From a virus, in UHGV virus genome UHGV-1436680: a DNA stretch of 6,300 bases; one strand, written 5' to 3'. Shown in pieces: positions 1-6,300 of the stretch. Under the pieces are notes generated by a model. The model searched no databases. It had not been told where the DNA came from and saw only the letters and a list, made by a program, of their open reading frames with translations. Each line of letters opens with the position of its first letter. The first letter of the stretch is position 1. The translations under genes and the position numbers were made by a program.

Positions 1-66
1 CAAGCAGAAGACGGCATACGAGATAGGAGTCCGTCTCGTGGGCTCGGAGATGTGTATAAGAGACAG
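1..66. other. Illumina Nextera adapter (technical, not biological): P7 flow-cell sequence, 8-nt i7 index, transposase adapter and mosaic end
   Basis: 1-24 is CAAGCAGAAGACGGCATACGAGAT (P7); 25-32 AGGAGTCC is the reverse complement of GGACTCCT (the Nextera N705 index as I recall it); 33-66 is GTCTCGTGGGCTCGG followed by the mosaic end AGATGTGTATAAGAGACAG. Confidence 0.95.
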
Positions 67-237
67 CAGATAAACAGCCTTGCCAGATTCCTTACCATCC
101 CACGGCTTAAACTCGCCATTGTCCGCCAGCATCAGCGGGGTAAATTCCTGAATAACGCCAGCATCAGCGGCAAAATGTACCAGCGTCGTGGCGACCTGCT
201 GACTGCCTGCAAATAACTCAATGTATGGAGTGTCCAT
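67..237 (-). CDS. Hypothetical protein, 5' part only (57 codons, truncated by the adapter junction); next gene downstream of the capsid gene
   Basis: ATG at 237-235 (complement) sits 5 nt after GGGGGA and 11 nt after the capsid stop. The frame stays open to the insert edge: MDTPYIELFAGSQQVATTLVHFAADAGVIQEFTPLMLADNGEFKPWDGKESGKAVYL. Not in the ORF track because it has no stop. Family not recognised. Confidence 0.5.
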
Positions 238-248
238 AGAATCCCCCG

Positions 249-1304
249 TTAACCAATTTTGACGGTAACAAATTTACGAATATCTGCCGGAACCGGCTGC
301 GGTGCGCTGTGCGTCTGCACGTACTCAATCGCCGGATCGCCGTCCCCAATCCAGTTTTTCGGGTAAAACATGTTTTGCGTTGCGCCCGTTCTTACTGCGT
401 CCTGATCCATAATCGCACCATAGGCCACCAGCCCTTTATTGTTGGTGTTGCCCAGAACCAGCAAATCAGGCTCAAGGAAATATTTTTCTGTGCCGTCGCT
501 GTCAGTGTATTTGCCGGAATAGACGATAAGGGCAATATCGCCCAGATAGCCTTTAAAGCTCACCACTTCGCCCAGGTTTTTACAGGCCAGTTCGGCGGCG
601 GACTCTGAACCACGGGAAAGATCGTACAGCTCACGGAATTTTTTAAAGCTGCGTAACGTGCGCCATACCTCAGCGCCCATAATCATGACGTTTGCGGGGC
701 AACCAGCCTGATCAGCATAAAGCTCGATGTCATAGATTGGGTCGTGCATGTCTTTATCCTGCTCGGACCATTTTTTACCCTTGGCCTGCTCTATGATGCA
801 GTTTTCCGGTATTTTCCAGTCGATTTCATAGCGTTCTATGCCTTCGCCCTCAATGATGTTTTTTCCGGTCGTTATCGCATTCACCGCCAGCCATTCCACG
901 CGCGCTTTAATGGCGTTTACCTGGCGGCGCATGTTGCCAGTAATCAGGCGCATACGGCGGTAGGTAGGGTCGTTAAGCTGTGCCGGATCTTCTCCAGCCA
1001 TGCGCATGATGGTTTTTGTTGGATCGATTTCGTGCTTTGGCTTCATGTAGCCAGGTTTAATTGTGCTGGTTTCGTACCCTTTATCGCGCTGTACCTGGCT
1101 GCCAACCATAGGCGAACAAAACGCCGACATGGTGACTTCTTCAATGTCCAGGGTATCCAGCATGATGTTTTGCGTGCTGAATGTCGCCACGTTCGGGAAA
1201 AACAGCGTAGTAAACAGAGGGTTGAATTTAAAATCCGCAATATCCCCGCGATTCAGGTACATGAAAAGCTGGTTAGTGTTAAGTGCCGTTGCTTTGCCTG
1301 TCAT
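249..1304 (-). CDS. Major capsid protein, phage lambda gpE family (351 aa)
   Basis: Blocks match lambda gpE as I remember it: FKFNPLF (lambda FKFDPLF), PGYMKPKHEI (PGYVKPKHEV), GEDPAQLNDPTYRRMRL (DEDPQNLADPAYRRRRI), FKGYLGDIALIVYSGKYT (YKGMYGDVAIVVYSGQYV), VLGNT, YPKNW, GDPA, SAP. Length is similar (351 vs about 341 aa). SD GGGGGTGA lies 4 nt before the ATG. Confidence 0.9.
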   Translation of the reverse strand: MTGKATALNTNQLFMYLNRGDIADFKFNPLFTTLFFPNVATFSTQNIMLDTLDIEEVTMSAFCSPMVGSQVQRDKGYETSTIKPGYMKPKHEIDPTKTIMRMAGEDPAQLNDPTYRRMRLITGNMRRQVNAIKARVEWLAVNAITTGKNIIEGEGIERYEIDWKIPENCIIEQAKGKKWSEQDKDMHDPIYDIELYADQAGCPANVMIMGAEVWRTLRSFKKFRELYDLSRGSESAAELACKNLGEVVSFKGYLGDIALIVYSGKYTDSDGTEKYFLEPDLLVLGNTNNKGLVAYGAIMDQDAVRTGATQNMFYPKNWIGDGDPAIEYVQTHSAPQPVPADIRKFVTVKIG

Positions 1305-1510
1305 TATTCACCCCCGTGAACCTGATTCATACCCAGCGCCGCGCGTAAATAGGCGCGTACCTGCCAGCCTGTTGACGGCTCAACCATCGCCAGCGGATCA
1401 AGTCCTGCCGCAATGCCTGCTTTTACGTTCTGCTGGTGGCGTTCCTTGAGCGCCTTCACGATGTCGGGGCTTATGTACACCGAAACACCGCCTTTTTTCT
1501 CTTCAGCCAT
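1304..1510 (-). CDS. Hypothetical small protein (68 aa), translationally coupled to the capsid gene; not lambda gpD-like
   Basis: Its TAA stop overlaps the capsid ATG by one base (TAATG). SD AAGAGGAA lies upstream of its ATG at 1510. It is the first ORF after the promoter/operator region. The segment GVSVYISPDIVKALKERHQQ is weakly reminiscent of a ribbon-helix-helix strand-helix, with no firm homology. Confidence 0.5.
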   Translation of the reverse strand: MAEEKKGGVSVYISPDIVKALKERHQQNVKAGIAAGLDPLAMVEPSTGWQVRAYLRAALGMNQVHGGE

Positions 1511-1538
1511 AGTAAGAAATTCCTCTTTGACTTAAAAA

Positions 1539-1568
1539 ATCATAACTGGATGTTCATCCAGTTATGAT
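1539..1568. promoter_or_regulatory. Perfect 30-bp palindrome (14-bp arms, 2-bp spacer), candidate operator over the capsid-unit promoter and start site
   Basis: ATCATAACTGGATG (1539-1552), TT, CATCCAGTTATGAT (1555-1568); the arms are exact reverse complements. It abuts and overlaps further palindromes: TGATTATAATCA (1565-1576) and ATCATGAT (1573-1580). Confidence 0.6.
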
Positions 1569-1594
1569 TATAATCATGATTGCATTTTGTGCAA
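1567..1594 (-). promoter_or_regulatory. Putative sigma70 promoter for the 68-aa/capsid transcription unit
   Basis: On the minus strand: -35 TTGCAC (complement of 1589-1594), 16-nt spacer, -10 TATAAT (complement of 1567-1572). The predicted start near 1560 gives a leader of about 50 nt to the ATG at 1510. By-eye prediction only. Confidence 0.45.
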
Positions 1595-1675
1595 TGATAT
1601 TGAGTTGCGTTGCAAATTATGAAATGATTATCCCGATCATGTGTGTCAGTGCACCAAAAAACCTCATATGCAAAA

Positions 1676-1714
1676 GCCCGATAAGATGCCTCCTGTACTT
1701 ATCGGGCTTTTTTT
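1676..1714. terminator. Intrinsic terminator hairpin, strongest for the plus strand, possibly bidirectional
   Basis: Stem GCCCGATAAG (1676-1685) pairs with CTTATCGGGC (1698-1707) around a 12-nt loop, followed by T7 (1708-1714) on the plus strand and preceded by AAAA, which gives a shorter U tail on the minus strand. Confidence 0.6.
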
Positions 1715-1720
1715 GGGTAC

Positions 1721-1743
1721 AAAAAAGCCGGATTACTCCGGCT
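1721..1743 (-). terminator. Rho-independent terminator ending the minus-strand replication/SSB operon
   Basis: Read on the minus strand just after the TAA stop at 1749-1751: AGCCGGA, loop GTAA, TCCGGCT, then TTTTT(T). A 7-bp GC-rich stem with a T tail. Confidence 0.65.
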
Positions 1744-1748
1744 GTTGA

Positions 1749-2021
1749 TTAGCTGTCTGGGTAATTACGCCATATTTCATCGCTTACACCATCTATACCC
1801 ATTTCAGCATAAGTGCGATCTACTGCCTTTCTCAGGTCTCCGAAGTTATCCGGCGGCTCCGGTGGCTTCTGTGCCTTCCTGGAACATTCCAGCCGTCGCA
1901 TCGTAACCTGATGCCGTTCCTTGTCTGTCTCCACCAGCAGCATGACTTCACCCCATCGCGCCGATGCCCTCCGGTAAAAGCCTTTTGCCTCGAGTTCCTC
2001 CGCTATGCGGTCATGTACCAT
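1749..2021 (-). CDS. Small hypothetical protein (90 aa), possible helical regulator (ANR-family-like resemblance is tentative)
   Basis: Start chosen at the ATG at 2021, which follows GGGGGTGACG located 10 nt after the SSB stop. The 130-aa track ORF would overlap SSB by about 110 nt. Sequence begins MVHDRIAEELEAKGFYRRASARWGEVMLL...; the family call is a weak recollection only. Confidence 0.5.
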   Translation of the reverse strand: MVHDRIAEELEAKGFYRRASARWGEVMLLVETDKERHQVTMRRLECSRKAQKPPEPPDNFGDLRKAVDRTYAEMGIDGVSDEIWRNYPDS

Positions 2022-2031
2022 CGTCACCCCC

Positions 2032-2442
2032 TCAGAACGGAATATCATCACCGTAGGGGTCATCGTCTCCCGCTGGTGGCTGATTACCCTGTGTGCCTGT
2101 GGTTTTGCGTCTGTTCCCGCCAGGACGTGCCGCACGGGCACTGATTACGCTGTCTGCAATAACCTGATAACCCTGCCGCGTTTCCCCGTTCTGTCCGGTC
2201 CACTGGCTGACCTGCATCGTGCCGGATACGCTGGCAACGTCGCCTTTTTGATGTTTAGCCAGGAAGTCGGCCTGCTTACCAAATGCGATGACCGATAGCC
2301 ATAACGTAGCCTGCCCATCCTGCGCCTGACTACATGGCAACGATACCGCCATACGTGCCAGCGTCATTGGTGTGCCCTTGCTGGTCTGTTTTACCTGCGG
2401 GTCGTCCACCAGCCGCCCGTAAGCTGCTATCTGTGCTGTCAT
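2032..2442 (-). CDS. ssb: Single-stranded DNA-binding protein (SSB) homolog, 136 aa
   Basis: The C-terminus DDDPYGDDIPF is the canonical acidic SSB tail ending in IPF. The OB-fold region resembles E. coli SSB, with a Gly/Gln-rich linker (PGGNRRKTTGTQGNQPPAG). The ATG overlaps the upstream stop (ATGA at 2439-2442). Confidence 0.85.
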   Translation of the reverse strand: MTAQIAAYGRLVDDPQVKQTSKGTPMTLARMAVSLPCSQAQDGQATLWLSVIAFGKQADFLAKHQKGDVASVSGTMQVSQWTGQNGETRQGYQVIADSVISARAARPGGNRRKTTGTQGNQPPAGDDDPYGDDIPF

Positions 2443-2690
2443 GATTCCACCTCTCCGGTTTTAACGTTGATGGTTGTCACCTGTTCAGCTTCCGCAATCT
2501 CCCGCTCTGTCAGCGTGGCAAAATTTGCCGCCGTCGTGGTCATGAATGCGCTTATCAGTTCGGGATGTGCTTTCGCGTATCCTTCCCCCGCGTGGCGGTC
2601 TATCGTTCTGATTGCCACCTTTAAGGCGTGCTCTGTCATGTCTAACGCTTTATATTTTGGCTCTGTTCTGTCTCTGTGTTTTTGAGTCAT
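2439..2690 (-). CDS. Hypothetical protein (83 aa), translationally coupled to ssb
   Basis: Start chosen at the internal ATG at 2690 (MTQKHRDRTEPKYKAL...), preceded by GAGGTGG. The 114-aa track version begins inside the iteron array and is probably an over-extension. Family not recognised. Confidence 0.5.
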   Translation of the reverse strand: MTQKHRDRTEPKYKALDMTEHALKVAIRTIDRHAGEGYAKAHPELISAFMTTTAANFATLTEREIAEAEQVTTINVKTGEVES

Positions 2691-2692
2691 TT

Positions 2693-2893
2693 GCCCACCT
2701 CTACCCACTTTTTTCGCCCACTTTTTACGTTTTCCCACTTCGTCCAACGTGGGAAATTTGGGATTTATATCATCTTGTTTCATAGGTATTTTTTAGTGCC
2801 CACTTTTTGGGATATATACACGTGGGAAAGTGGGTAATTTTGTTAAAATTCCGTTAAATCGCCCACCTTTCCCACTTTTAATGCCCACTTTTT
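2693..2893. repeat. Iteron array, putative origin of replication
   Basis: Core CCCAC, usually followed by a T-run (GCCCACTTTTT), occurs 8 times in direct orientation (starting about 2694, 2704, 2717, 2734, 2799, 2862, 2871, 2884) and 3 times inverted as GTGGG (2749, 2822, 2830). Includes the inverted pair TTTCCCAC-N10-GTGGGAAA (2731-2756) and an AT-rich stretch (2757-2820). It lies immediately 3' of the Rep gene and overlaps its stop codon. Confidence 0.7.
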
Positions 2894-4301
2894 ACAGTGG
2901 TCCTACATCATCACCGTCAATGTAGATCACGTCGTCTTTTTCCAGTTTGGCTAACCATCGTTTAAGGTGTTTTGTGTCATACTCCAGCTTTTTCATATCG
3001 TCACGTAACAGCGGGATCGTGCACTTGTCGCCGTGCTGTGTGCGTGAACGTATGCATCCCCATAGCGCGGTATGGTTTTCCGTCTTGTTGCCTGCCTCCT
3101 CGATGCGCTCCAGTTCAACGGGAGGGCGCGGCTTATCCACCACCACCAGCGACGTGATTAACTCCCCGTCAGCGTCGGTAAAAAGCTCCACCACGCGTAA
3201 GTCATATGCGGCTTCTTTGAGTTCCTCCGCGTCCTTCATTTTGGTGCATGAGATAACCAGCGCTTCGCTTCCTGCGTCCTCCCTGCGTATCCGGTATTCA
3301 GCATCCAGCGAAGCACGAAATGCACTGGAACCGCGCGCGCCTTTCGTCTCATCCTTGCCGGAATGGTGAACCACCAGCACCGTGGCCCCTGTGCGTCGTT
3401 TCAGTTCGTCACAACCACGGATAAACGCCCCCATATCACGGGAATCATTTTCATCATTACCACCAAAGCAACGCGCCAGCGTATCCAGAATAATCATGCG
3501 AACAGGTTTACCCGTTTCCCTCTCCACCTGACGGGCAGCGATAACCATTTCATCAACATCAAGCGGGACCGCCGGAAAGATGGGACGGTTTACCAGATAC
3601 AGATTTTTCACCTGCTCACCGTGCACAACCTCCCAGGCTTTTACACGACGCGGAACGCCGATACCGCCTTCACCAACCACATAGAGAACAGCGCCATGCG
3701 CCACCCTGCGGCCTCCCCACTGGCGGCCCGTGGAAACGTGACACGCCCACGATCCGGCAAGGAATGATTTATAGGAACCGCTCGCCCCGTATATGCTGCA
3801 AAGCGACGATGCCGGAATAATCCCCTTTACCACGTAATCAAGCTGTGTGTCGTATCCGGTAGATCCAACGCTCATCGGTAGCGTGGTTTTTCGCTGGGGG
3901 ATTTTTTTCATGACCAGGCTTTCCCCGCGTTCCCATGCCTCCCTAAGCCGTGGAAGCTGGTCGCTCCATTCCTCCAGCAATTCGAAATTTTCAGAAAGTA
4001 GCCGCGCCTCCTGGACTCCGGCGATCGCCAGTTTCGTGGCGATGGTTAACAGCTGCGGCTCTTCAATATTTCCGGCGCGTATCACCGTCGCCCTGTATCG
4101 CCCATCATCAACAATCTGGAGGTTATCCAGTTCGCTTAACTGATAACGCCCCAGATAAACGGGAGGGACTGGATCTCCTGCTTTTTTTGCCTGTGCAATG
4201 ATGTAATGCTCTGCGAATGAATGAGCATCAATACCCGCAAAAATAATCGCATCGGTGTATTTATCTTTCGGTAATCGTTTTACGTTCGGTGCCAGTTTCA
4301 T
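2892..4301 (-). CDS. Replication protein, RepA/DnaB-like RecA-fold helicase-family ATPase (AAA_25-like), 469 aa, with an unassigned N-terminal domain of about 150 aa and a C-terminal putative DNA-binding region
   Basis: P-loop-like GASGSYKS (complement of 3765-3788), Walker B-like VRMIILDTLARCFGG, and VLVVHHSGKD...GSSAF matching the hhhHHxxK...GssA pattern of RepA-type helicases. Strong SD AGGAG 7 nt before the ATG. Start overlaps the upstream stop (ATGA at 4298-4301). Iterons lie directly downstream. No primase motifs seen. Confidence 0.8.
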   Translation of the reverse strand: MKLAPNVKRLPKDKYTDAIIFAGIDAHSFAEHYIIAQAKKAGDPVPPVYLGRYQLSELDNLQIVDDGRYRATVIRAGNIEEPQLLTIATKLAIAGVQEARLLSENFELLEEWSDQLPRLREAWERGESLVMKKIPQRKTTLPMSVGSTGYDTQLDYVVKGIIPASSLCSIYGASGSYKSFLAGSWACHVSTGRQWGGRRVAHGAVLYVVGEGGIGVPRRVKAWEVVHGEQVKNLYLVNRPIFPAVPLDVDEMVIAARQVERETGKPVRMIILDTLARCFGGNDENDSRDMGAFIRGCDELKRRTGATVLVVHHSGKDETKGARGSSAFRASLDAEYRIRREDAGSEALVISCTKMKDAEELKEAAYDLRVVELFTDADGELITSLVVVDKPRPPVELERIEEAGNKTENHTALWGCIRSRTQHGDKCTIPLLRDDMKKLEYDTKHLKRWLAKLEKDDVIYIDGDDVGPL

Positions 4302-4597
4302 TTTTTACTCCTGAATCCGTTAATCATGGTTTTCAGCTTCTGGATGTTTGCCCGTGCCCTGGCGTTGCTGGTGGGCACGTTATGCGGCGCGGTCTGTACC
4401 AGAGAAAAATCACGCCGGAACTGATAAACAGGCATCACGCAATCATATTCGTAACCTTCACGGCGGTAGGTTACGCGCCGTTCTTCCACGCCCTTAATCA
4501 TTACCGTGCCGCCGTACTGGTCGCGGTAAATATCACCGCGCGTAAATTTAGGGTGAGTGTTGCCACTGGCAGTTAAGCCAGAATATTTAAGTTTCAT
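4298..4597 (-). CDS. Hypothetical protein (99 aa); possible DUF4222-like small protein of the kind found upstream of satellite replication genes (low-certainty recollection)
   Basis: ORF with GGAGA upstream of the ATG, coupled to the Rep start by an ATGA overlap. Contains the motif RVTYRREGYEYDCVMPVYQFRRDF. Confidence 0.55.
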   Translation of the reverse strand: MKLKYSGLTASGNTHPKFTRGDIYRDQYGGTVMIKGVEERRVTYRREGYEYDCVMPVYQFRRDFSLVQTAPHNVPTSNARARANIQKLKTMINGFRSKK

Positions 4598-4602
4598 TAT
4601 TT

Positions 4603-4836
4603 TTATTCTCCGGTGTGCTGTTCGTTATATCTGTCGTGCAATGTCTCTATTTCCTGCAACTCATTTATTACAGGCTCAAGAAGCGTTATTAATGATGTAA
4701 TAATCCGCGTTTTTTTTGCATTACGTTCATTATCGCCAAAGGATTCAAGGCACATCCGCAATATTTCGTACATACCTTCAGCGTAAGCAAGGGCACTAAA
4801 TGCGCGGTCTATTGTTTCAAGATAAATATCACGCAT
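4603..4836 (-). CDS. Hypothetical small protein (77 aa)
   Basis: ATG preceded by GAGGA. The start overlaps the stop of the upstream ORF by 8 nt (ATGCGTGA). Lies in a low-GC stretch. No family recognised. Confidence 0.5.
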   Translation of the reverse strand: MRDIYLETIDRAFSALAYAEGMYEILRMCLESFGDNERNAKKTRIITSLITLLEPVINELQEIETLHDRYNEQHTGE

Positions 4837-5062
4837 GGCTTACATCCTCAGGAAATTTTCTTCTGTAACGCGCCTCTGCCACATATTCCGCATAATCGGC
4901 GGCGATATTCAGTACATCAAGTCCCGTTGATTTATATTCTTTCGTGGAAAGTAAGAAAAAAGCCGCTCTAATAAGTTCTGGCATTGACGAAAGCGCATCA
5001 GCCGCATCATCAGGAACGCCGGAAAATTCTTGTTTCAGGGAATTAAAACGATCATCACGCAT
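4829..5062 (-). CDS. Hypothetical small protein (77 aa)
   Basis: The ATG immediately follows the G9 tract (GGGGGGGGGTTATG). The ORF overlaps the 3' end of the upstream ORF by 28 nt. No family recognised. Confidence 0.5.
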   Translation of the reverse strand: MRDDRFNSLKQEFSGVPDDAADALSSMPELIRAAFFLLSTKEYKSTGLDVLNIAADYAEYVAEARYRRKFPEDVSHA

Positions 5063-5277
5063 AACCCCCCCCCATTTTCACAATCAGCAACAAGAATATT
5101 TTTAGCGTCATTCAGCGACCGCGTTGCGATGTATCGGATACATTCCAGGGCGAACTGTGTCCGGTCTTTCTGTTCTTCTCCCTGCGCAAGCTCTGCCGTG
5201 CATTCAATATCAATAAGCGCGTGCATCAGCGTAGTGAGTGCGGCGGCTGCTGCGTTCGGTGTGGTTTTATTGTGCAT
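5035..5277 (-). CDS. Hypothetical small protein (80 aa)
   Basis: Start chosen at the internal ATG (MHNKTTPNAAAAAL...) preceded by GGGGGA. The 3' end reads through the G9 tract (ENGGGLCVMIVLIP). Predicted helical; no family recognised. Confidence 0.45.
   Translation of the reverse strand: MHNKTTPNAAAAALTTLMHALIDIECTAELAQGEEQKDRTQFALECIRYIATRSLNDAKNILVADCENGGGLCVMIVLIP
5065..5073. repeat. Homopolymeric C9 (G9 on the coding strand) tract at the junction of two overlapping small ORFs
   Basis: Nine consecutive C at 5065-5073, read directly from the sequence. Confidence 0.9.
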
Positions 5278-5467
5278 AGGTTTCCCCCTGACGAATACGG
5301 GCGGCGAATACAGCAACACAACCGGACGGGCAACGGCTACGCGCTTCGCGTTCCGTCCAGGCGGTTACGTGGATGATTTGAGATTCTCCGGCACTCAGGG
5401 CCAGAAAACGCCACACAAAGGCCGTTTGTGTGTGTACAAGGTGTGGTATATGATTTACGGCAACCAT
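5267..5467 (-). CDS. Hypothetical small protein (66 aa), possible first gene of the minus-strand early operon
   Basis: ATG at 5467 preceded by a strong SD (AGGAG, 5-nt spacer). The frame is open for 66 codons (MVAVNHIPHLVHTQTAFVWRF...). The stop lies 8 nt downstream of the next ORF's ATG. Support is start context only. Confidence 0.35.
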   Translation of the reverse strand: MVAVNHIPHLVHTQTAFVWRFLALSAGESQIIHVTAWTEREARSRCPSGCVAVFAARIRQGETYAQ

Positions 5468-5557
5468 AACGGCTCCTAGTTTACGTTGTTGGTTAGAAGC
5501 CCTGCGAGTGGTAATGACACTTGCGGGGCTTTGCTTTTTTAAGTGCTCTTGTGTTAA

Positions 5558-5601
5558 GGTGACCACCTAACAATGGAAAGGCTAATTCAATAGGTGACCA
5601 C
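5558..5601. promoter_or_regulatory. Two copies of GGTGACCAC(C) in the divergent intergenic region; candidate operator half-sites
   Basis: GGTGACCACC at 5558-5567 (near-palindrome, arms GGTG/CACC) and GGTGACCAC at 5593-5601, 35 bp apart. The second overlaps the SD and start of the Arc-like gene. A weak -35/-10 candidate (TGACCA, 17 nt, TAATTC) overlaps the first copy. Confidence 0.4.
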
Positions 5602-5793
5602 TTGTCAACAATCAAACGCGATAAAAGCCCTAAAGGGGACGGGCAATCCCCACAATTCAGAATGCGAATTTCTCCAGAGCTAAAAGAGCAATTCGACAAA
5701 GAAGCACAGAGCGACGGCATAAGCCTAGCCAACTGGCTTAAAGAGTTGGGGCGCACTGAACTAAAGCGGCGCGGCATAGAACCCAAAGGATAA
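5602..5793 (+). CDS. Arc/Mnt-like ribbon-helix-helix DNA-binding protein (63 aa, TTG start)
   Basis: PQFRMRISPELKEQFDKEAQSDGISLANWLKEL aligns with the P22 Arc (PQFNLRWPREVLDLVRKVAEENGRSVNSEIYQRV) and Mnt beta-strand/helix A/helix B pattern. SD AGGTGA lies 4 nt before the TTG. The internal ATG at 5662 would delete the beta-strand. Confidence 0.6.
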   Translation: MSTIKRDKSPKGDGQSPQFRMRISPELKEQFDKEAQSDGISLANWLKELGRTELKRRGIEPKG

Positions 5794-5850
5794 AAACTAT
5801 CAGCGCCGTGGTGTGAGGTATTACGGCGCATTGCTATGCAGGACAACACA

Positions 5851-6024
5851 ATGACCGATAAAGAATTGACCAAAACATTATCACCGGCACGGAAAAGACG
5901 GCGCAGAAAGATAGAGCATGAATCAGAAAGATTCGCACCATGTGCTTTTGCCCTTGAGCAATTCCTTAAAGAGTATAGGGAAAAGCGCTCATTGCAGGTA
6001 TGGCAACGAACTGAACCAGACTGA
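5851..6024 (+). CDS. Hypothetical small basic protein (57 aa)
   Basis: ATG at 5851 with AGGA 7 nt upstream. Arg-rich segment ARKRRRRK. Followed by a terminator. Weak evidence, no homology recognised. Confidence 0.3.
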   Translation: MTDKELTKTLSPARKRRRRKIEHESERFAPCAFALEQFLKEYREKRSLQVWQRTEPD

Positions 6025-6118
6025 TTGCATTGCCCACCAGCCTGATAGCGGCTATCATCCCCGTGCTTATGTTTGGGATCACATACACATAAGGCGCAGC
6101 GGGTTAATTGTTCAGAAA

Positions 6119-6146
6119 GGCGGCTCCATATCGGGGCCGCTTTTTT
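6119..6146 (+). terminator. Rho-independent terminator for the plus-strand Arc-like unit
   Basis: Stem GCGGCTCC (6120-6127) pairs with GGGGCCGC (6133-6140), with one G-U pair, around a 5-nt loop, followed by T6 (6141-6146). Confidence 0.6.
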
Positions 6147-6239
6147 CGTGTTTGTCATATCTGTGATACCCGTTAAGCAGCCGTTCCGCGTGCTTCCTGT
6201 TCGCGTTCTTTCTGCCAGGCCAACACATCATCCTCATAC

Positions 6240-6300
6240 CTGTCTCTTATACACATCTGACGCTGCCGACGAAGAGGATAGTGTAGATCTCGGTGGTCGC
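6240..6300. other. Illumina Nextera adapter (technical): mosaic end, read-1 adapter, i5 index, P5 sequence (reverse-complement orientation)
   Basis: CTGTCTCTTATACACATCT (6240-6258), GACGCTGCCGACGA (6259-6272), AGAGGATA (6273-6280; reverse complement of TATCCTCT, the S503/N503 index as I recall it), GTGTAGATCTCGGTGGTCGC (6281-6300, start of the P5 complement). Confidence 0.95.

Follow-up and report, generated by a model that had tools for sequence, protein, structure and literature searches.

Five small genes at the front of a probable satellite operon in Escherichia coli, two of them joined at a length-variable poly-G tract

What are the five small open reading frames (ORFs) packed between the regulatory genes and the replicase gene of the viral sequence UHGV-1436680? 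In the 6,300-nucleotide (nt) stretch analysed here, referred to as the window, an initial annotation had taken them for a cluster of low guanine-plus-cytosine (GC) content with no recognisable family, possibly cargo acquired separately from its surroundings. Our analysis points to a different answer. The region is very probably the promoter-proximal half of the replication (early) operon of a phage-inducible chromosomal island (PICI) of the type represented by EcCICFT073 and O-island 51 (OI-51) of Escherichia coli, working along the lines proposed below. Two of its genes, designated N and C, meet at a homopolymeric run of guanines (poly-G tract) whose length sets their reading-frame relationship.

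The element was identified through its chromosomal counterpart. Positions 67-6240 of the window are 100% identical to chromosomal DNA of E. coli MS 21-1. The remaining ends (1-66 and 6241-6300) consist of Illumina Nextera adapters, P7 and P5 respectively, together with their index sequences; the window is a tagmentation fragment, or a contig, that did not undergo adapter trimming and holds about 6.2 kb of island DNA. In MS 21-1, the island spans about 10 kb beside tRNA-Pro and yejM and carries, in this order, int, the gene for a 68-amino acid (aa) AlpA-like helix-turn-helix protein, the Icd-like gene, N/C, X, a DUF4222 gene, and the genes for RepA helicase, SSB, PerC, capsid protein, decoration protein and small terminase (terS). 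The integrase, encoded outside the window (L001 15810-17051) and adjoining tRNA-Pro, has Phage_integrase, Phage_int_M and Arm-DNA-bind_3 domains; the capsid gene is of the lambda-E type (Phage_cap_E, 1.7e-50), the decoration gene of the lambda-D type (HDPD, 4.4e-17), and the small terminase matches Phage_Nu1 (2.3e-23). No tail, portal, lysis, connector or further structural genes are annotated in the 10-kb MS 21-1 island. Apart from the regulator, which scores just below the AlpA cutoff, this inventory fits the five-component definition of a PICI used by SatelliteFinder, namely an integrase, an AlpA-type regulator, a primase or replicase, a capsid-morphogenesis-like gene and terS, with no tail, holin, portal or connector gene (PMC10085698). 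The island has its own replicase gene (window 2892-4301), as is asked of a Gram-negative PICI.

Since this gene order matches the published architecture of EcCICFT073, EcCI042 and O-island 51 of O157:H7 (PMC6092414, PMC3378721), we assign the island, by its gene content, to the EcCICFT073/OI-51 type. The succession int, AlpA-type or AlpA-like regulator, small ORFs, rgdR, replicase, perC, capsid, decoration and terS is common to the MS 21-1 island and to EcCICFT073 and OI-51 (CP-933C, Sp7); both have a 99-aa RgdR with an RGD motif at residues 20-22, and O157:H7 relatives (L004) carry the same N, C and X genes. There are also differences. The window allele has a RepA-type helicase instead of a primase, the score of its AlpA-like protein is under the Pfam cutoff, and two genes on the opposite strand, one for a ribbon-helix-helix protein and one for a 62-aa protein, lie between regulator and operon; furthermore, neither N, C and X nor the poly-G tract is described in the published accounts consulted on EcCICFT073 and OI-51. 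In EcCICFT073, a helper phage induces alpA, AlpA switches on the island genes, and replication needs the island's own replicase (PMC6092414). Helper-dependent induction, replication and high-frequency packaging have been shown experimentally for EcCICFT073 and its relatives only (PMC6092414). DNA similar to the small-ORF region is present in 1,467 of 5,426 complete E. coli genomes (about a quarter) and found no match among 50,697 phage records.

The tight packing of the small ORFs (66, 80, 77, 77 and 99 aa) was borne out; they lie where initially described, on the minus strand. The first gene of the operon, the icd-like gene (5267-5467, 66 aa), overlaps N (5035-5277, 80 aa in the frame state of the window) by 11 nt. 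N in turn overlaps C (4829-5062, 77 aa, with an ATG of its own) by 28 nt, and C overlaps X (4603-4836, 77 aa, a predicted two-helix hairpin) by 8 nt. A gap of 5 nt precedes the rgdR homologue (DUF4222; 4298-4597, 99 aa), the stop codon of which is embedded in a 4-nt ATGA overlap with the start of the replicase gene (2892-4301, 469 aa; PF13481 AAA_25, 2.2e-44; RefSeq 'helicase RepA family protein'). In nearly all related loci the spacing is kept at -8 or +1 between C and X, +5 between X and RgdR, and -4 between RgdR and the replicase. A purine-rich, Shine-Dalgarno-like stretch is found before each of the five starts.

Conservation, synteny and coding signature were examined. Searches by tblastn with the window proteins found each ORF in 76-94 of 94 related loci, at identities down to 44%. 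The ratio of nonsynonymous to synonymous substitution rates (dN/dS; pairwise Nei-Gojobori) was 0.36 for the icd-like gene, 0.40 for N, 0.22 for C, 0.32 for X and 0.34 for RgdR, compared to 0.18 for SSB and RepA, whereas alignments of the C gene read one base out of frame, used as a control, gave 1.3-1.6. Thus, the five ORFs are genuine protein-coding genes under purifying selection. The shortness of the ORFs, and the presence of a long spurious ORF without family match right next to them (5493-6158), might have suggested a non-coding leader with reading frames arising by chance. However, protein conservation, in-frame dN/dS values of 0.2-0.4, matches to curated families, a fixed spacing of starts and stops and an RgdR function shown experimentally (PMC3378721) leave this idea with practically no probability, and it can be considered refuted.

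The proposal that the ORFs are separately acquired cargo had been linked to their base composition. Low GC is indeed a property of C (0.44) and X (0.39), with values at third codon positions (GC3) of 0.33 and 0.36, respectively. It does not extend to the icd-like gene (0.54), N (0.50) or RgdR (0.50), to be compared with 0.53 for Rep and 0.50 for both the capsid gene and the whole insert. Cargo deduced from low GC therefore fails, the feature being confined to two of five ORFs. Moreover, the same genes are found in the same order and with the same spacing in PICIs of E. coli, Shigella and Salmonella, beside three different replicase families. Since position, order and spacing are kept across islands with different replicases, the small ORFs look like a conserved core module whose alleles are shuffled, rather than variable cargo.

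A more specific proposal, that N, C and X were acquired horizontally and serve to counter host defences or the helper phage, can draw on the AT-richness of C and X, on the high mosaicism of the alleles (44-100% identity, with N and C variants assorting independently), on the products being small, helical and without known family, as phage-encoded inhibitors typically are, and on the tiny size of a family confined to satellites of Enterobacteriaceae. We consider it unlikely. Besides the conserved position, order and spacing in islands of E. coli and Salmonella whose replicases differ, no defence-system model of PADLOC matches any of the ORFs, the 50,697 phage records hold no match, and nothing ties N, C or X to a defence or helper target. 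In any event, a role as cargo or in helper interference is compatible with assignment of the region to the replication operon and is not an alternative to it.

The N and C ORFs are a gene pair joined at the poly-G tract, as opposed to independent chance ORFs. The N protein consists of a conserved helical hairpin of about 70 aa ending in ...ADCENGGG, followed by an out-of-frame tail, LCVMIVLIP. It matches positions 1-77 of phrog_2512, and C matches positions 78-154 of the same family as well as positions 1-77 of phrog_24341. The tract, G9 on the minus strand (5065-5073; it reads C9 on the plus strand), supplies the codons for the final Gly-Gly-Gly of N, and 2 nt separate it from the ATG of C. 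Among four further E. coli genomes, a run of G7 or G10 gave a single ORF of 145-154 aa, and one of G9 gave two ORFs. The tract was scored in loci from IMG/VR, a metagenome collection and species-representative genomes in which exact 13-nt and 16-nt flanks enclosed 4-16 nt. In the resulting 147 loci it was G7 in 34 cases, G8 in 62, G9 in 31, G10 in six and G11 in two; in the remaining 12 the run was interrupted, as in GGGGGTGG and GGGGAGGGGGGG. Isolate-derived and metagenome-derived samples agreed. Tract length modulo 3 sets one of three states: N and C are fused into one protein of 145-155 aa (27% of the 147 loci), the upstream frame stops at the TGA inside ATGCGTGA in a coupled stop/start arrangement (49%), or N runs 28 nt into C, as in the G9 window (24%).

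When loci with identical flanks (±250 nt) were grouped, 8 of the 18 haplotype groups were polymorphic for the tract, and 24 of 67 pairs differed in it. At a flank divergence of 0.5% or less, 85% of the pairs already differed, which is the random expectation. Together, these figures indicate that the tract changes far faster than any neighbouring base. On a shorter scale its length is preserved: groups with identical flanks of ±400 nt mostly share a single length (for instance, five with G7), and some 20 genomes of the 042 clone, evolved lines included, as well as seven O26 genomes gave identical match lengths. One may ask if the differences are simply sequencing or assembly errors, given that homopolymers are error-prone on long-read and older platforms, that many complete genomes are long-read assemblies, and that the window, with its untrimmed adapters, was not carefully processed. 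The data make this extremely improbable. The same distribution (G8 more frequent than G7 and G9) was obtained from IMG/VR isolates and from SPAdes-style short-read metagenome contigs; there are five length values, up to 4 nt apart; the groups with identical flanks of ±400 nt and the 042 clone are mostly uniform; interrupted variants, GGGGAGGGGGGG among them, turned up repeatedly, in several loci; and the G9 of the window is also the G9 of the independent MS 21-1 genome.

Is the split state a form of decay? The RefSeq annotation by PGAP labels L001 13763-14211 (window 4829-5277) 'hypothetical protein, frameshifted', and does likewise in L005. This would make N and C a single gene of about 150 codons, and the window copy a frameshifted pseudogene in a decaying cryptic island. 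Intact proteins of 154-155 aa are common in E. coli, and one gene at the far end of the MS 21-1 island is truncated, as such a view would have it. However, the split frame is found in 73% of the 147 loci. An intact C of at least 73 aa is found in 94 of the 101 split-state loci (93%) and in 37 of the 39 fused-state loci (95%), the dN/dS of C is 0.22 in the former and 0.23 in the latter, and C always keeps its own ATG 2 nt past the tract. All 12 interrupted, hence stabilised, tracts are in split frames. Since C is intact and equally constrained in every frame state, the pseudogene label is probably wrong, and we consider decay of a single gene very unlikely.

A profile search of 1.84 billion cluster representatives further argued against decay of a single gene. 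Of the 65 relatives found, about 36 correspond to N only, about 21 to C only and about 8 span the junction, most representatives being therefore stand-alone halves. The N-only homologues measure about 70-95 aa, and the C-only homologues begin exactly at the internal methionine (profile position 78). Distant relatives came from Salmonella, whose PICIs carry C alone behind an ordinary GGAGG and without poly-G. Because the halves mostly stand alone and Salmonella has C by itself, two separate genes appear to be the general condition, and a poly-G junction with occasional fusion a speciality of E. coli and Shigella. Judging from the position of the G run and from the GGAGG-containing interrupted variant, the most plausible additional role of the run is that of a ribosome-binding site for C.

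A different role for the G run would be that of a programmed recoding site, at which slippage of RNA polymerase or of the ribosome produces fused and separate products from any genotype. A run of 7-11 identical bases located exactly at the junction of two open frames, the tolerance of all three DNA frames in nature, and the near invariance of some 45 nt around the tract amid strongly diverged outer gene parts would all suit such a mechanism. On the other hand, C has its own start codon and does not need recoding for its expression. In addition, known bacterial transcriptional slippage uses runs of A or T, and known -1 frameshift sites have the form X XXY YYZ with an A/U-rich second triplet. 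No downstream stimulatory structure was found, though no search aimed at one was made. On balance, recoding appears a rather remote prospect.

The invariant segment covers window positions ~5030-5090 in 143 loci, and the outer parts of the two genes form allele classes that are 44-70% identical; N and C alleles combine independently. The N/C junction looks like a recombination joint for allele shuffling. The purity of the tract was considered as a sign of selection, non-G bases amounting to 1% per site as opposed to 17-29% at flanking third positions. This was not retained: the 45 nt around the tract are equally invariant, and the search pattern itself fixed 29 of them, which makes the purity argument weak.

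A second site of poly-G variation was found in the X gene. Sixteen loci without the X allele of the window (L008, L033, L036, L048, L059, L065, L066, L075, L099, L101, L114, L132, L133, L139, L144 and L150) carry an alternative allele of 68-69 aa (MDKIPFDVLIHSENAL...) with a related C-terminal helix. In this allele a run of G5-G10, about 350 nt downstream of the N/C tract, encodes glycines at the predicted hairpin loop. Its frame is intact in seven loci and truncated in nine, the latter including all six copies of the TENNTERGG sub-allele. The X allele of the window has a run of eight A residues (GCAAAAAAAACG; 4710-4717, minus strand) in the loop of its hairpin, the same structural place as the poly-G of the alternative allele. 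L014 and L036 have a third variable poly-G (G10 and G8), located some 5 kb further downstream than the N/C tract and directly before a start codon (GATAATTAC-Gn-ATATGCCAAAG), where a ribosome-binding site would be expected. Beyond the three poly-G sites, G or C runs of 8 or more are almost absent from 1.34 Mb of related-locus sequence. The recurrence of poly-G at glycine linkers raises the possibility, which is not established, that slippage is used and not merely tolerated.

Phase variation at poly-G or poly-C is seen at the simple-sequence contingency loci of Neisseria, Haemophilus and Campylobacter. Such loci are not known as a native mechanism in mismatch-repair-proficient E. coli. The N/C tract resembles them in that a G7-G11 run within coding sequence varies in length between otherwise identical haplotypes and shifts the frame, and the alternative X allele yields the classic outcome of intact or truncated product. 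The N/C junction differs in having no OFF state: both ORFs are open and constrained in all three frames, and what is switched is fused versus separate. Clones have stable lengths here, so that the rate of switching is probably far below that of classical loci. That E. coli and Shigella PICIs use poly-G repeats as contingency switches, toggling N-C between fused and separate and the alternative X between on and off, is a proposal we consider unlikely.

At variance with the initial view that none of the ORFs has a recognisable family, all five belong to PHROG families and two match named ones. The 66-aa product of the first gene, whose start is preceded at 6 nt by an AGGAG Shine-Dalgarno, matched the NCBIfam model NF033153 (phage_ICD_like) with 64.6 bits against a cutoff of 25 (6.1e-18), residues 17-60 aligning with profile positions 1-48. 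Its PHROGs are phrog_29966, phrog_1743 and phrog_6196, and its RefSeq name is 'host cell division inhibitor Icd-like'. The Icd protein of phage P1 has 73 aa and binds FtsZ, its active core comprising residues 12-51 (PMC11897509). The matched domain here (44 residues) approximates this published core. Binding to FtsZ, block of the Z ring and filamentation have been demonstrated for P1 Icd only (PMC11897509). As relayed there from Riedel 1993, the P1 immI operon offers a parallel: in both cases a protein of about 70 aa is the product of the first gene of a tightly coupled regulatory or early operon in a temperate element. The P1 operon has an antirepressor gene downstream; in the PICI, N, C, X, RgdR and the replicase take this place. 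Neither was pairwise similarity with P1 Icd detected by tblastn, nor a C4-type RNA by Rfam in the PICI: with the Icd-like protein as query, the 50,697 phage records gave no P1 icd and a single match, to a 16.5-kb 'phage' record probably derived from a satellite, and the Rfam scan yielded two sub-threshold chance matches only (26 bits against cutoffs of 55-60), with no C4 or P4-type immunity RNA.

In Salmonella enterica PICIs (L096-L098), the Icd-like domain constitutes the C-terminus of a 193-aa protein, a layout also found in phrog_29966, and Bro-N or Phage_ASH genes lie upstream. The 66-aa protein may be a minimal version of the longer one. A terminator-like hairpin within codons 12-20 of the icd-like gene (5412-5432) was considered as an attenuator; it occurs in just one of three icd allele classes and is probably incidental.

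The 99-aa ORF matched Pfam DUF4222 (PF13973) with an E-value of 1.6e-24, identifying it as a homologue of RgdR. This small, basic protein, studied as ECs1581, has 99 aa and an RGD motif at residues 20-22. It binds DNA without sequence specificity, stimulates the LEE1 promoter and represses motility (PMC3378721); it was found in every E. coli PICI analysed (PMC3378721, PMC6092414). The window homologue has R20-G21-D22 and K35, which govern activation of type III secretion in ECs1581 (PMC3378721). It carries A10 and R45, as does the inactive ED1a variant, and keeps R20, K35 and R61. The expectation, from the early-operon position, of finding host-directed genes was therefore upheld, with one member of the Icd family and one homologue of a published regulator of EHEC type III secretion and motility. 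The rgdR stop overlaps the replicase start (ATGA) for three types of replicase: RepA helicases of 465-471 aa, primases of 582-604 aa and DUF927 proteins of about 707 aa. This fixed overlap with whichever replicase follows suggests that the primary job of RgdR may be tied to replication or regulation of the island, besides its effects on LEE and motility.

Less can be said of N, C and X. They have no match in PADLOC, Pfam or NCBIfam, a sequence search of the PDB returned nothing better than E ~0.2, and their PHROGs lack function labels; X belongs to phrog_2196 (1.4e-30). The AlphaFold2 (AF2) model of X (predicted local distance difference test score, pLDDT, 92) is a hairpin of two long helices (residues 2-32 and 37-75), for which Foldseek searches of the PDB and BFVD returned generic helical hairpins only, none with E below 0.2. 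The model of the fused N-C protein (pLDDT 56) shows a hairpin, with N helices at 7-37 and 42-73, a glycine linker, a short helix and a second hairpin. From these models, N, C and X are probably small helical, protein-binding products. Paralogy among the three, all helical and of about 75 aa, two of them starting with MRD, was tried and rejected (hhalign probabilities below 1%).

Together, these elements suggest how the region could work. By position, the five genes would form the front of an AlpA-activated transcript, and induction by a helper phage would lead the AlpA-type activator to turn the operon on. The packing would let ribosomes pass from gene to gene and into the replicase. By analogy with P1 Icd and its action on FtsZ, the Icd-like protein might block host division during island replication and packaging. 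RgdR would be a small basic DNA-binding co-regulator, and N, C and X most likely modulators that bind host or helper proteins, which is a reasonable guess from the predicted folds. Through slipped-strand mispairing, the G run would give rise to heritable variants that differ in N-C linkage and probably in the amount of C. What the analysis itself shows of this scheme is no more than gene layout, conservation, family membership and the polymorphism of the tract.

Several points weigh against this scheme. The AlpA-like regulator (L001 15107-15313, only its last 22 codons falling inside the window) is a soft spot: it aligned with the whole PF05930 (Phage_AlpA) profile at E=0.0035 but its score of 17.6 bits is under the Pfam cutoff of 21. 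Because no P1 icd match was obtained by tblastn, the relation with Icd holds at the profile level only and FtsZ targeting is an extrapolation. The fold of X has generic matches only and the fused N-C model is of low confidence. The frame states occur at roughly comparable frequencies and are stable within clones, so that the tract, instead of serving as an adaptive switch, may be a mutational hot spot with next to no effect on fitness; finally, sampling with exact flanks leaves out elements whose N/C junction has diverged.

Literature searches covering poly-G tracts or phase variation in prophages and PICIs of E. coli, as well as the small EcCICFT073 ORFs, gave no account of N, C, X or the tract. 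As far as this literature goes, the new elements are the unstable poly-G junction and the probable error of the RefSeq pseudogene call; the island and two of the genes are of known kinds. For annotation, the region is better described as an Icd-like gene, an rgdR homologue and an N/C pair than as 'unknown ORFs' or a pseudogene. RefSeq appears to mislabel the N/C pair 'frameshifted' wherever the G run is not 7 or 10. Should the tract states differ in phenotype, E. coli satellites would diversify by simple-sequence slippage; should they be equal, the tract would be a tolerated mutational hot spot doubling as a ribosome-binding site. If contingency switching were true, satellites within one clonal population of hosts would differ in the way they interact with helper or host, and the case would be the first description of native slipped-strand phase variation both for an E. 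coli mobile element and for a phage satellite.

The arrangement also recalls the early (left) operon of satellite P4, in which small overlapping ORFs precede a primase/helicase gene in an integrated E. coli satellite. Some relatives of the module adjoin 'DNA primase family protein' genes and carry 'ash family' genes. However, no P4 small protein was matched, and the capsid-related genes here are of lambda type, not sid/psu. Fillol-Salom et al. (2018, PMC6092414) regard PICIs and P4 as distinct lineages, with no more than distantly related Int, AlpA/Vis and Pri-Rep in common.

Upstream of the operon, the segment 5557-5611 (minus strand) is a candidate promoter/operator. It contains a perfect -35 motif, TTGACA (5606-5611), and two copies of the near-palindrome AGGTG-NN-CACCT (5557-5573 and 5592-5608), which are 35 nt apart, the upstream copy abutting the -35. 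Only loci with the regulatory allele of the window (6 of 131) had the repeat. One of its two copies has the opposite orientation in L018 and L046, as would suit a palindromic operator. A 15-bp GC-rich hairpin followed by a T-run (5496-5540) separates the start of the icd-like gene from the ribbon-helix-helix gene; it forms a plus-strand terminator that is antisense to the operon leader and sits, on the minus strand, about 30 nt before the icd-like Shine-Dalgarno. A weak Rfam match to 'rnk_pseudo' corresponds to this hairpin.

RefSeq also lists at 5493-6158 (minus strand) a 221-aa 'hypothetical protein' that is rich in Ser, Cys, Arg and Leu and has no match in Pfam, NCBIfam, PHROG or PADLOC. 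This call is probably spurious. The opposite strand of the segment carries plus-strand ORFs (5602-5793 and 5836-6024) for a 63-aa ribbon-helix-helix protein (HicB/Arc-like; YlcI/YnfO family in relatives) and a 62-aa phrog_21027 protein; beyond these ORFs lies a strong terminator (6114-6146, plus strand). At the extremities of the window, the adapter index is AGGAGTCC at the start (P7 side) and TATCCTCT at the end, which is the reverse complement of the P5 side; both adapters end in the Tn5 mosaic end, and the ORFs at 52-216 (plus strand) and 6112-6237 (minus strand) are in part adapter artefacts.

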